Origin: Escherichia coli
Lineage (GTDB): Bacteria; Pseudomonadota; Gammaproteobacteria; Enterobacterales; Enterobacteriaceae
Length of the DNA: 64,000 nucleotides
Direction: 5' to 3' (one strand)
Assembly: GCF_048403405.1 (NCBI RefSeq)
Contig: NZ_CP183129.1
In this document: piece after piece, positions 35,874-37,902 of the stretch
How positions within the stretch are numbered: the stretch's first letter is position 1
Layout: the number at the start of each line of letters is the position of its first letter
Made by a program: the position numbers and the translations under genes
The notes under the pieces: generated by a model
The model's input: only the letters and a program-made list of their open reading frames with translations
What the model was told of the DNA's origin: nothing
Databases searched by the model: none

Positions 35874-36215
35874 TCACCGTGCCGTGGTGTTATGGCAGCG
35901 GCGCAGCAGACCTGTAGCCTGTCGCGCCCGTAAAATATCGACCGCACGAAGATAAGGCGTCTGTTCCTTCCAGCTAAATCCTTTCCTGTCGATACGGATC
36001 AATTCGTACTTCTCCACCAGAAAATTGACGGCATCGACCAGAGTGATCCCGGCGTCTATGTGTTCCTGAATCACCTTTTCATTGTTGAATGGTGTGTCAT
36101 TAAGATTCAGCCCGTAGTGCTGCTCCAGTAGGCGGGTCAGTAATGTTTGCCAGACCACGACGGGCGACAGGTATGACGTCGTCGCCCGCAGCGTCGTTGC
36201 AGGTATAATTTTCAT
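35874..36215 (-). CDS. CbtA-family toxin (YeeV/YkfI/YpjF-like, cytoskeleton-binding type IV toxin)
   Basis: 113-aa protein with the family signature ...[23 protein letters not shown]...[16 protein letters not shown]...; downstream of the CbeA-like gene. Confidence 0.8.
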
Positions 36216-36245
36216 AACGATGTTCCGTATTAAGGAGGTTAAAAC

Positions 36246-36581
36246 TCAGCGTTGAGCGGGATAAATAGCGATATAGACGTAACCACTGGAACCCAGCGTA
36301 TCGGCTTCGCAGGTTAGTTCTTTGGCGTATAGCGTGACGGTACGTTGTTGGCAGGGGGAGAGTTCACCGTCAGCCAGTTTCAGCTCCAGTTGTTTCATCA
36401 GCACCGGAAAAGCCTGGTCGATATGCAGCAGATCCGGGGAGCTGAATTTCCCGGTGATTGCGGCCCGATCAGCCAGGTAATGCAGGTTATGTCTTTCCTG
36501 TACCAGTCGAGCAGTGAAGCGTGGTGTTACGGTACAGGGAAGCCCCCATTCTTGTTGCATGACCTTGTCCTTTTGCAGCAT
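36246..36581 (-). CDS. CbeA-family antitoxin (YeeU/YafW/YfjZ-like)
   Basis: Signature ARLVQERHNLHYLADRAAITGKF...CEADTLGSSGYVYIAIYPAQR typical of the CbeA family. Confidence 0.8.
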   Translation of the reverse strand: MLQKDKVMQQEWGLPCTVTPRFTARLVQERHNLHYLADRAAITGKFSSPDLLHIDQAFPVLMKQLELKLADGELSPCQQRTVTLYAKELTCEADTLGSSGYVYIAIYPAQR

Positions 36582-37054
36582 TACAACCAGCCCCGTTCGG
36601 CAAAAGAGAGGACATCCCCCGCCCCAATAATGAAATGATCCAGCACCCTCACTTTCACCAAATCCAGTGTCTTAACAATATTCGTTGTAATAAGTCTGTC
36701 GGCCCGACTGGGTTCCGTCACGCCGGAGGGATGGTTATGCGCAAGGATCACTGCTGCGGCATTGTGCCGTAGCGCAGATTTCACAATCTCACGGGGATGT
36801 ACTTCTGTGCTGTTAATCGTGCCGAGAAATAGCGTTTCGTGTTCCAGCAGTCGGTTCTGGTTATCGAGGTAGAGCACAACAAACATTTCCCGCTCCTGTC
36901 GTGCCAGATGCAGTTGCAGCCAGGTTTTTGTGGAGTCAGAGGAAAGAAAAGATTCGCCAGGATTGCGTTGATATTTCTCCAGCAGACGCATCGCACGGCG
37001 GATAACGCGTTGTTCACTCACCGAAAATACCGGTGTTAGCATCAGTTCAGACAT
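36581..37054 (-). CDS. RadC-like JAB-domain protein (YeeS/YkfG/YfjY family)
   Basis: JAMM-like motif HNHPSG plus upstream conserved E/H (ILAHNHPSGVTEPSRAD). Confidence 0.8.
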   Translation of the reverse strand: MSELMLTPVFSVSEQRVIRRAMRLLEKYQRNPGESFLSSDSTKTWLQLHLARQEREMFVVLYLDNQNRLLEHETLFLGTINSTEVHPREIVKSALRHNAAAVILAHNHPSGVTEPSRADRLITTNIVKTLDLVKVRVLDHFIIGAGDVLSFAERGWL

Positions 37055-37083
37055 CGTATTTCCTTTACTATTAATAGCGTTGT

Positions 37084-37902
37084 TTATGAGGCCAGTTGCA
37101 ACATGTTTTCAGCCATCACCCACAGGGCGCGGTTGAGCCTGACATCGCCGTCGATGCCTTTAATGGCGCGGGTGTGCGTGCGACCACCTTTTGCCGTCCG
37201 CCCGTTTAAACCACCTTTGATCAGGTTCTCCTGAATACGCTGGTAGGTCGTCCACAGATCGCCGGATTCATCCTGCCAGCGGCGGGGAGCCAGCAACTGG
37301 GATTCCGTCACCGGCTGGTGCTCTTCGCCAAAGCGGTACGTCAGCGCCGCCTTTGCCAGCGCCTGTTGCGCAGGGGGAGGCAGCATCAGCGACTGCATGG
37401 CATCGCGTTTCTCTTCTACCTGGTCAAAAACACTGAGGACTTCATAAGCGCCTTCAATCACTTTCTCCACCACATTGCCTTTATGCGGTACCCGTACTTC
37501 ACCAAACGACTCGCCGCAGACCAGTCCGTTACAACAAACAGATCGAAACAGCCCTGGCAGCATCTGATAAGAACTGGAACCGTCATGGCTGTTGAGCAGA
37601 ATAATTTCCGGCACCTGGTTGCGATTGATCTTGTCTTCCCGGCGCAGACGCAGCATGTGTTTTGTATGCTCACGTTTACCCACATCACGAACACGGGTCT
37701 GGCAGGCAAAAAAAGGATGAAATCCTTCACGCTGGAGGTTATCGAGCAGGGTAATGGTGGGAATATAGGTATAGCGTTCGCTGCGTGATTCGTGCTTATT
37801 TTCCCCGAATACGCTGGGGACATACTGCATCAATTCGTCATGCGTTAATGGGCGATCGCGACGGATTTGATTTACGCGGCCAAAGCGGCTGGCTAAATTC
37901 AT
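37084..37902 (-). CDS. DUF932/YafZ-like protein of CP4-type prophages
   Basis: 272-aa ORF immediately upstream of the radC-like gene, as in CP4-6/CP4-57 modules; family call from memory. Confidence 0.6.
   Translation of the reverse strand: MNLASRFGRVNQIRRDRPLTHDELMQYVPSVFGENKHESRSERYTYIPTITLLDNLQREGFHPFFACQTRVRDVGKREHTKHMLRLRREDKINRNQVPEIILLNSHDGSSSYQMLPGLFRSVCCNGLVCGESFGEVRVPHKGNVVEKVIEGAYEVLSVFDQVEEKRDAMQSLMLPPPAQQALAKAALTYRFGEEHQPVTESQLLAPRRWQDESGDLWTTYQRIQENLIKGGLNGRTAKGGRTHTRAIKGIDGDVRLNRALWVMAENMLQLAS

Follow-up and report, generated by a model that had tools for sequence, protein, structure and literature searches.

The closest described relatives of the genes considered here are the toxin-antitoxin pairs of the Escherichia coli K-12 'CP4' modules, CbtA/CbeA (YeeV/YeeU), YkfI/YafW and YpjF/YfjZ. 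Both YkfI and YpjF are toxic proteins that bind FtsZ and make cells lemon-shaped, and YafW/YfjZ neutralise them (PMC5371832). Phenylalanine 65 is needed for FtsZ binding by CbtA, YkfI and YpjF, and the F65S substitution abolishes binding in all three; arginine 15 is needed for the CbtA-MreB interaction and is not conserved among the three K-12 toxins, and C15R is without effect in YkfI and YpjF (PMC5624674). According to work cited in PMC5624674, type IV neutralisation, in which the antitoxin acts on FtsZ/MreB bundling without binding the toxin, is known only for CbeA. The CP4-57 genes yfjX-yfjY-ypjJ-yfjZ-ypjF form one operon and the RadC-like YfjY (LfgB) has protease activity (PMC10846083). 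The CbtA of Erwinia amylovora elongates cells and bound neither FtsZ nor MreB (PMC6521040).

We analysed a window of 64,000 nucleotides of E. coli DNA, in which four intact, tightly packed open reading frames, all on the minus strand, make up a block (35874-37902) that begins and ends with its genes: the toxin stop codon ends at 35874, and the DUF932 start codon begins at 37902 (Table 1). A gap of 29 nt separates the DUF932 and RadC-like genes, the stop codon of the latter overlaps the antitoxin start codon by 1 nt (TAATG), and 30 nt lie between the antitoxin and toxin genes. The Pfam bit scores of the four proteins (150-191) are so far above the gathering cut-offs (22-27) that chance matches are excluded, and the RefSeq annotation of identical DNA in E. 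coli genomes gives the same four genes. The preliminary description had proposed a CbtA/CbeA-type toxin-antitoxin pair with RadC-like and DUF932 genes, encoded by intact and closely spaced reading frames, and it was right on both counts (Pfam E-values of 1e-44 to 1e-57). The block is an ordinary, already annotated E. coli genomic-island gene set and is related, in reduced form, to the K-12 'CP4' modules.

Table 1 Features of the block and of its surroundings (positions are those of the window).
Feature	Position	Strand	Remarks
AbiEi (DUF6088) + AbiEii nucleotidyltransferase pair	33524-34928	-	PADLOC AbiEi 2.9e-53, AbiEii 1.1e-126
DUF4942 gene	34929-35762	-	277 aa from the RefSeq ATG, ORF extends to TTG at 35783; PF13708 E 1.9e-70
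CbtA-family toxin gene, YkfI-like	35874-36215	-	113 aa; PF06755 E 4.1e-57
YeeU/CbeA-family antitoxin gene	36246-36581	-	111 aa; PF06154 E 1.2e-46
RadC-like JAB/JAMM gene	36581-37054	-	157 aa; PF04002 E 2.5e-44
DUF932 gene	37084-37902	-	272 aa, first in block; PF06067 E 4.4e-53
Non-coding region upstream of block	37903-38138	-	holds the next three sites
Weak promoter-like site	37951-37922		TTCAGA-18-TATATT
Terminator-like hairpin and T-run	about 37925-37960		
Perfect 14-nt inverted repeat	38090-38120		
Island backbone upstream	38139-43440	mixed	317-aa hypothetical (-), YagK/YfjJ 'inovirus Gp2' (+), AlpA-type HTH (+), 261-aa hypothetical (-), frameshifted GTPase (-), WYL-domain protein (-)
AlpA-type regulator gene	40416-40634	+	part of the backbone
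isrN (Rfam)	46934-47075		outside block
Tyrosine integrase, 3' part	63576-64000	-	runs off the window; translation has HGFRTM...AAYIH

Upon alignment to the K-12 paralogues the toxin gave identities of 77% with YkfI, 70% with YpjF and 56% with CbtA, and its residues 1-110 fall on profile positions 1-110 of the 112 of PF06755 (191.5 bits, cut-off 25). A search of solved structures with the toxin sequence gave no match. The preliminary description had raised divergence at key residues, and most of these are kept: F65 lies inside a conserved 12-residue motif identical to that of YkfI, and the toxin retains 71 of the 72 subfamily positions with a conservation of 95% or more. Residue 15 is tyrosine, where CbtA has arginine and YkfI and YpjF have cysteine; as these two toxins have C15, R15 is not family-defining. 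Residue 83 also differs. The position is glutamine in all 114 related cluster representatives, and the change to lysine (Q83K) is absent from the sister alleles examined; CbtA has cysteine at the equivalent position and thus the residue is not universally required. The tyrosine at position 15, the behaviour of the E. amylovora toxin and the uncharacterised MreB determinants of YkfI and YpjF could together be read as signs of an active pair whose toxin has a target other than FtsZ and MreB. We consider this very improbable, given that the toxin so closely resembles YkfI, which binds E. coli FtsZ, that F65 and its surrounding motif are identical and that the host is E. coli itself.

The antitoxin gene lies directly upstream of the toxin gene on the same strand. 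Its product is 64% identical to CbeA, 57% to YafW and 56% to YfjZ, scores 157.8 bits against PF06154 (cut-off 27) and matches the PDB entries 2INW (5.6e-45), 2H28 (2.3e-42), 2EA9 (1.4e-33) and 2JN7, the reported span of E-values being 5.6e-45 to 1.8e-33. Public annotations carry two lengths of this protein, 111 aa and 104 aa, the shorter of which begins at the alternative start Met8 (36560), which has its own AAGGA Shine-Dalgarno sequence. Three changes, G88E, C99S and T109A, are absent from the sister alleles examined; positions 88 and 109 are more than 90% conserved, and position 99 is cysteine in 77%. The comparison with the sister alleles gives three non-synonymous changes and no synonymous change, a count that does not point to constraint along this short branch. 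We rejected this pattern as proof of inactivation: other members of the family show variation at positions 88, 99 and 109, and the pattern is not statistically meaningful because it consists of only three changes.

Any of the substitutions, Q83K in the toxin or G88E, C99S and T109A in the antitoxin, could alter activity. Together they suggest a reading of the block as a remnant, attenuated or inactive, that sits passively in a decaying island and has a toxin weakened by lineage-specific substitutions. Q83K falls at an otherwise invariant subfamily position, the antitoxin changes are unaccompanied by synonymous ones, and the island backbone is eroding (the GTPase gene is frameshifted, and strain MS 69-1, which has the identical island, carries an integrase pseudogene); moreover, the Nissle 1917 copy of the block has a frameshifted DUF932 gene and a toxin with a replaced C-terminus. 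However, all four reading frames are intact here, the toxin has kept F65 and 71 of the 72 conserved positions, one of its relatives does without the glutamine at position 83, dN/dS is well below 1 on longer branches and the exact toxin and antitoxin alleles persist on about 350-430 public contigs. We judge it quite unlikely that the block is such a remnant.

Purifying selection acts on all four genes when measured against the K-12 paralogues, with dN/dS values of 0.12-0.24 (toxin), 0.20-0.26 (antitoxin), 0.10-0.25 (RadC-like gene) and 0.03-0.08 (DUF932). DUF932, for which a range of 0.03-0.14 was also obtained, is among the best conserved genes of the set. The proposal that the set is likely functional fits the intact reading frames, the retention of F65 and of 71 of 72 toxin positions, and dN far below dS against the paralogues; to judge from the sequence, these features, the intact JAMM motif of the RadC-like protein and the overall dN/dS range of 0.03-0.26 are consistent with a working toxin-antitoxin pair. 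The explanation that we hold with good confidence for the locus as a whole is that of a probable operon forming a type IV toxin-antitoxin block in a leuX defence island. By analogy with the K-12 homologues, the 113-aa toxin would bind FtsZ, by a surface including F65, as well as MreB, and binding would block division and elongation with growth arrest and formation of lemon-shaped cells. The antitoxin would neutralise in type IV style by stabilising FtsZ and MreB bundles, leaving the toxin unsequestered, and the pair would most likely be an addiction or stabilisation module that makes losing the island costly.

The RadC-like protein has an intact JAMM motif, HNHPSGVTEPSRAD (HxH-x7-S-x2-D), scores 150.5 bits against PF04002 and matches PDB entry 2QLC (E 2.5e-27). 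It is 53-57% identical to YeeS, YkfG and YfjY(LfgB), with 54% identity to LfgB, and is probably a zinc metalloprotease like the latter. The DUF932 gene is preceded by an AAGGA Shine-Dalgarno sequence, and its product, with identities of 83% to YafZ and 82% to YfjQ, covers profile positions 1-227 of 227 of PF06067 (180.8 bits). A fold search with its AF2 model (pLDDT 94) gave no informative match; this protein has a confident fold but no inferable function. The DUF932 fold is widespread among phages and mobile elements.

The four genes are probably one operon, which probably extends into the DUF4942 gene. The latter lies 111 nt downstream of the toxin gene, the intervening DNA has no terminator-like site, and of five related loci that were examined, four have DUF4942 after the toxin gene, whereas in Nissle 1917 it is replaced. 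For the DUF4942 protein there was a match over part of a PHROG whose annotation is DNA methyltransferase (E 3.8e-15), and comparison with solved structures gave no meaningful match (best E 0.04). Next on the same strand is the AbiE pair, in a slot that holds variable cargo; in SA186 it is occupied by a RelE/CopG pair. The non-coding region upstream of the block contains a perfect inverted repeat, a terminator-like hairpin with a T-run and a weak promoter-like site that overlaps this hairpin; the hairpin arms upstream of DUF932 are kept in six loci, with variation confined to the loop. The promoter and terminator scan found sites no more numerous than in shuffled sequence and supported no particular promoter, and hence the operon structure is inferred from the spacing only. 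An Rfam scan at gathering thresholds gave no match in the block, its sole match being isrN.

The carrier is a leuX-integrated, P4-integrase ('CP4-like') island with the block at its integrase-distal end. The window ends within the integrase gene, and in the identical island of MS 69-1 the same segment is annotated as an integrase pseudogene and is followed by tRNA-Leu (leuX). A search for attR found no copy of the leuX region of at least 13 nt anywhere in the window, which leaves the distal island boundary approximate, near 32.3-33.5 kb. The middle of the island is variable and carries phage-defence systems; the cargo consists of BREX-1, the candidate system HEC-01, the AbiE pair and IS remnants. 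The backbone order upstream of the block is common to Nissle 1917, EC_T6, GF4-3, SA186 and TUM18781, and the DUF932-RadC-YeeU-CbtA gene order flanks differing defence cargo in six genomes. Hence the same conserved backbone goes with strain-specific cargo: BREX-1 and HEC-01, an ABC-three-component system, TIR-domain proteins, or a type I R-M system with Dsr1. No phage structural, lysis or replication genes are annotated between leuX and nanS in MS 69-1 and no structural genes were seen in the window; we thus rejected a strict prophage identity for the carrier, 'prophage' being a historical CP4 label only. Membership of the block in a defence system was also rejected, PADLOC having matched none of its four genes.

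The block is 100% identical in eight complete E. coli genomes, 218 of 5,426 genomes have 80% or more of it, and identical copies of each protein occur on 351-455 public contigs. Plasmid carriage was rejected, as the sole 'plasmid' match, pMTY18781-2, carries fim and nan genes and is therefore a chromosomal segment. The E. coli family to which the block belongs is well described, and RefSeq already has names for the exact proteins of the block. Its significance beyond correct annotation is small, with a modest use in recording a compact variant that has a YkfI-like toxin and a CbeA-like antitoxin, lacks the DUF987 and antirestriction genes and has DUF4942 downstream.

The island setting brings in another reading, in which the block chiefly serves the establishment of a mobilisable island or works against defences, like a plasmid leading region, with YeeU-family, RadC-like and DUF932 proteins acting in the new host after transfer and the toxin being secondary. 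In a Cre-fusion screen an F-type T4SS translocated the K-12 proteins CbeA, YagB and YfjZ (PMC11288057), an ArdB/KlcA-like 'antirestriction' gene is part of the block in its K-12 versions, genes for an AlpA regulator and for a rolling-circle-Rep-like protein (YagK/YfjJ) are present on the island, and the DUF932 fold is, as noted, common in mobile elements. However, the variant in the window lacks the antirestriction gene, the domain annotation of the listed reading frames names no relaxase or T4SS component, RadC-like, DUF932 and YeeU proteins are without demonstrated anti-defence activity, and PADLOC left all four genes unmatched. We regard this reading as unlikely, and it is compatible with the toxin-antitoxin reading rather than exclusive of it. 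A more elaborate version, to which we give very little credence, would make DUF932-RadC-YeeU-CbtA-DUF4942 the conserved 'establishment' end of mobilisable defence-island carriers, with the YeeU-family protein, perhaps along with others, being delivered to a new host or expressed there at an early stage, and would take Q83K and G88E/C99S/T109A as direct co-adaptation of toxin and antitoxin. If true, such co-adaptation is not predicted by the type IV 'no contact' model.

The locus was compared with the known sets. It had been called a canonical prophage module homologous to yeeRSTUV and ykfFGHI-yafW; the gene identities and the homology hold, whereas the block is a trimmed variant rather than a full set and its carrier is a leuX defence island. 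None of the K-12 sets is orthologous to the block: the toxin is YkfI-like and the antitoxin CbeA-like, and several genes differ. The DUF987 gene (YeeT/YkfH/YpjJ) that would lie between the RadC-like and antitoxin genes is absent here and in all five related loci; the overlap of these two genes leaves no room for it. The YafX/YfjX(LfgA) antirestriction gene is absent from upstream of the RadC-like gene, which DUF932 directly precedes, and YeeR, YkfF and a DUF905 gene are likewise absent from the block.

The CP4-6 set (YkfI/YafW/YkfG/YafZ) resembles the block in its toxin, also of 113 aa and with F65, in its DUF932 protein, in the placement of a RadC-like gene upstream of the antitoxin and in having all genes on one strand. 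However, the antitoxin is nearer to CbeA than to YafW, CP4-6 has YkfH (DUF987) between RadC and antitoxin and YafX, YkfF, YkfB and YafY between DUF932 and RadC, all missing from the block, and DUF4942 is present in the window locus but absent from CP4-6. CP4-44 provides the nearest antitoxin, CbeA, which shares the N-terminal WGLPCTVTP motif, a pair of the same type IV family and the RadC-like YeeS upstream. The window toxin differs from CbtA in being 11 aa shorter at the C-terminus as well as at residue 15, the antitoxin-toxin spacer is 30 nt rather than the 88 nt of CP4-44, and YeeR, YeeT and flu are lacking. With the CP4-57 lfgABCDE genes, which are transcribed as one operon, the block shares the RadC-antitoxin-toxin core and an integrase-distal position in a tRNA/tmRNA-integrated island with an AlpA regulator, whereas it lacks lfgA (antirestriction) and lfgC (DUF987) and its RadC-like protein is 54% identical to LfgB. 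The E. amylovora CbtA/CbeA pair is a validated toxin-antitoxin pair of the same Pfam families; its toxin, with an elongation phenotype and without FtsZ or MreB binding, belongs to another clade, whereas the window toxin falls in the E. coli YkfI-like group.

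Four successive minus-strand genes, found among the ORFs listed for 33-41 kb of the window, exactly fill the interval 35874-37902 (see the table). All four Pfam matches are nearly full-length and well over the curated cut-offs, with NCBIfam contributing only generic RadC family models. DUF932 and the RadC-like gene are separated by 29 nt and the antitoxin and toxin genes by 30 nt, and the radC TAA and the antitoxin ATG share one base (TAATG). An AAGGA Shine-Dalgarno sequence lies ahead of both DUF932 and the RadC-like gene. Met8 of the antitoxin is an alternative possible start having its own AAGGA, and both 111-residue and 104-residue forms occur in public annotations. 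A DUF4942 gene (PF13708, 1.9e-70) lies 111 nt past the toxin gene, and no terminator-like site was found in this interval. Given the ORF span, the Pfam matches and the gene spacing and starts, the CbtA/CbeA module with RadC-like and DUF932 genes reported in the preliminary description is real and precisely placed.

Features of the module, its island and the remainder of the window
Feature	Position	Strand	Details
Inverse autotransporter	2004-7244	+	1,746 aa, intimin/invasin-like; IAT_beta and many Big_1, Invasin_D3 repeats
AbiEi (DUF6088)/AbiEii nucleotidyltransferase pair	33524-34928	-	PADLOC 2.9e-53, 1.1e-126; directly past DUF4942 and co-oriented with it
CbtA_toxin gene	35874-36215	-	113 aa; PF06755, 4.1e-57
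CbeA_antitoxin gene	36246-36581	-	111 aa; PF06154, 1.2e-46
RadC-like JAB gene	36581-37054	-	157 aa; PF04002, 2.5e-44
DUF932 gene	37084-37902	-	272 aa; PF06067, 4.4e-53
Terminator-like hairpin	37922-37960		GCCGCA...TGCGGC and T-run; directly upstream of DUF932 ribosome-binding site
Perfect 14-nt inverted repeat	38090-38120		AATTCTCCCGGTGA-CTA-TCACCGGGAGAATT; just past 317-aa gene stop
317-aa protein	38139-39092	-	low G+C (~39%)
YagK/YfjJ 'inovirus Gp2'-like protein	39684-40298	+	intact; weak REP_ORF2-G2P replication-initiator match, 2.6e-07
YeeP/YkfA/YfjP-like GTPase	41633-42645	-	frameshift giving two overlapping ORFs
isrN Hfq-binding sRNA	46934-47075	-	Rfam RF01396, 136.9 bits
HEC-01 candidate defence system	52775-54459	-	2 genes (AAA ATPase, 373 aa; DUF4276-like, 189 aa); PADLOC 1.2e-181, 5.2e-100

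Megablast of the 2.3-kb region gave E. coli matches, with 100% identity in eight complete genomes, MS 69-1 and TUM14771 among them. Of 5,426 genomes, 218 have at least 80% of the region, almost always on the chromosome; a plasmid location was rejected, as the sole plasmid match has fim and nan genes and thus is a chromosomal segment. The exact sequences of the four proteins occur in 351-455 public contigs apiece, and the toxin plus antitoxin allele pair in about 350-430. RefSeq names the products 'DUF932 domain-containing protein', 'RadC family protein', 'type IV toxin-antitoxin system YeeU family antitoxin' and 'TA system toxin CbtA family protein'. The block, already annotated, belongs to a well-known E. 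coli family and shows a compact variant of its gene arrangement.

The block is located at the far end of an island that is inserted at tRNA-Leu (leuX), beside nanS-nanM-nanC-fim. The identical island of strain MS 69-1 reads leuX, tyrosine integrase (pseudogene), BREX-1, IS remnants, WYL protein, frameshifted GTPase, hypothetical protein, AlpA, YagK/YfjJ, 317-aa hypothetical protein, the DUF932, RadC, antitoxin, toxin and DUF4942 genes, AbiEi/AbiEii, HNH plus restriction-gene fragments, and nanS. The window ends within the integrase gene and holds its 3' end only (the translation has HGFRTM...AAYIH), and a search of the window for an attR copy of the leuX end found none. The term prophage, also used in the preliminary description, is here just the historical CP4 label, because the leuX-to-nanS island has no annotated phage structural genes. 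The yagK/yfjJ-like gene, intact in the window, is interrupted by IS2 in MS 69-1, and the window therefore represents another strain within that clone group. The GTPase gene is annotated as a pseudogene in MS 69-1 and is intact in Nissle 1917, EC_T6, GF4-3 and SA186. isrN lies amid the IS remnants and HEC-01 inside the BREX-1 operon between pglX and pglZ, and the inverse autotransporter gene is outside the island, beyond uxuB/uxuA on the side opposite the fim cluster.

Nissle 1917, EC_T6, GF4-3, SA186 and TUM18781 share the DUF932-RadC-antitoxin-toxin order. The cargo flanked by this backbone differs between strains: Nissle has an ABC-three-component system, EC_T6 and SA186 have TIR proteins, and TUM18781 has type I R-M plus Dsr1; in GF4-3 a DEAD/DEAH-box helicase gene adjoins the backbone and a type II Zorya gene (zorE) lies beyond nanM. 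In SA186 a RelE/CopG pair occupies the AbiE slot, which is thus a variable toxin-antitoxin/abortive-infection cargo position. In four of the five loci the gene after the toxin is again DUF4942; in Nissle 1917 a frameshifted AAA ATPase gene and a retron-type HNH gene take its place. The Nissle copy (L005 11885-13993) lies in a different island adjoining yicL/nlpA and has a frameshifted DUF932 gene and a 141-residue toxin with a replaced and extended C-terminus. The gene for the 317-aa protein is conserved immediately upstream of DUF932 in all related islands that were examined, yet searches of Pfam, NCBIfam, PHROGs and PADLOC matched nothing to the protein. The arms of the inverted repeat are invariant in six loci, with variation in the loop alone; it could be a putative terminator or a putative protein-binding site. 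A weak promoter-like site coincides in part with the hairpin nearer DUF932, a hint of putative read-through control of the block.

The module is predicted to be functional, as had been proposed. All four ORFs are intact. CbtA, YkfI and YpjF each lose FtsZ binding upon the F65S substitution (Heller et al., PMC5624674), and a check for divergence at key residues found F65 retained in the window toxin and the surrounding 12-residue motif identical. R15 is required for CbtA-MreB binding, but the residue is cysteine in YkfI and YpjF, where C15R is without effect (PMC5624674); owing to this lack of conservation the tyrosine at position 15 of the window toxin is not disqualifying. Comparison with 114 cluster representatives from the YkfI-like subfamily showed 72 positions with conservation of at least 95%, of which the toxin retains 71, and the JAMM motif of the RadC-like protein is intact (HNHPSGVTEPSRAD). 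Nei-Gojobori dN/dS values versus the K-12 paralogues were 0.12-0.24 (toxin), 0.20-0.26 (antitoxin), 0.10-0.25 (RadC) and 0.03-0.08 (DUF932), values made rough by saturated dS (>1), yet dN is clearly far below dS.

The decaying island and lineage-specific substitutions would fit an attenuated remnant, but the ORFs are intact, residues are conserved and the allele pair has persisted, all of which argue otherwise. Toxin Q83K distinguishes the window allele from its sister alleles at a position that is glutamine in all 114 subfamily representatives and cysteine in CbtA. The antitoxin differs from its sister alleles by G88E, C99S and T109A, at positions that are glycine in 94%, cysteine in 77% and threonine in 91% of the family, and by no synonymous change. 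A statistical test would need more than three changes and, as the neutral expectation is about 76% non-synonymous sites, this pattern is a flag and no evidence of decay.

YkfI and YpjF are toxic, bind FtsZ, make cells lemon-shaped and are neutralized by YafW and YfjZ (PMC5371832). The targets of CbtA, YkfI and YpjF are the H6/H7 loop of FtsZ and, on MreB, the flat double-protofilament face (PMC5624674). CbeA is reported to act by bundling FtsZ and MreB filaments and not by binding the toxin (as cited in PMC5624674). Although Erwinia amylovora CbtA provides a precedent for another target (PMC6521040), this is unlikely here given the 77% identity to YkfI and the E. coli host. In CP4-57 yfjX-yfjY-ypjJ-yfjZ-ypjF form one operon, and the RadC-like YfjY/LfgB has protease activity (PMC10846083). 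By analogy, a single transcription unit is the most likely organization of the window block; its products would be a type IV toxin-antitoxin pair, which would stabilize the island, together with a JAMM protease and the DUF932 protein. A role as an establishment/anti-defence set of a mobilisable island would agree with translocation of CbeA, YagB and YfjZ by an F-type T4SS (PMC11288057) and with the frequency of DUF932 and RadC on mobile elements and phages, but the window variant lacks the antirestriction gene, the domain annotation of the listed ORFs names neither a relaxase nor any T4SS component, and its products are not known to have such an activity.

Upon alignment with the CP4-6, CP4-44 and CP4-57 proteins of MG1655 the proposed homology was borne out and the original interpretation is essentially right. 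Toxin identities were 77% (YkfI), 70% (YpjF) and 56% (CbtA), and those of the antitoxin 64% (CbeA), 57% (YafW) and 56% (YfjZ). The RadC-like protein is 57% identical to YeeS, 55% to YkfG and 54% to YfjY/LfgB, and the DUF932 protein 83% to YafZ and 82% to YfjQ. The module had been called canonical, which holds for the homologous genes but not for the layout, which is shorter than the K-12 sets. No DUF987 gene (YeeT/YkfH/YpjJ) was found between RadC and antitoxin, where the one-base overlap leaves no room for any, and no YafX/YfjX(LfgA) antirestriction-like gene, YeeR or YkfF was found in the block. DUF932 directly abuts RadC in the window, whereas in the K-12 sets it lies several genes off. The toxin is YkfI-like but its partner antitoxin is CbeA-like and, from these identities, the block is an additional paralogous lineage, orthologous to none of the K-12 sets.
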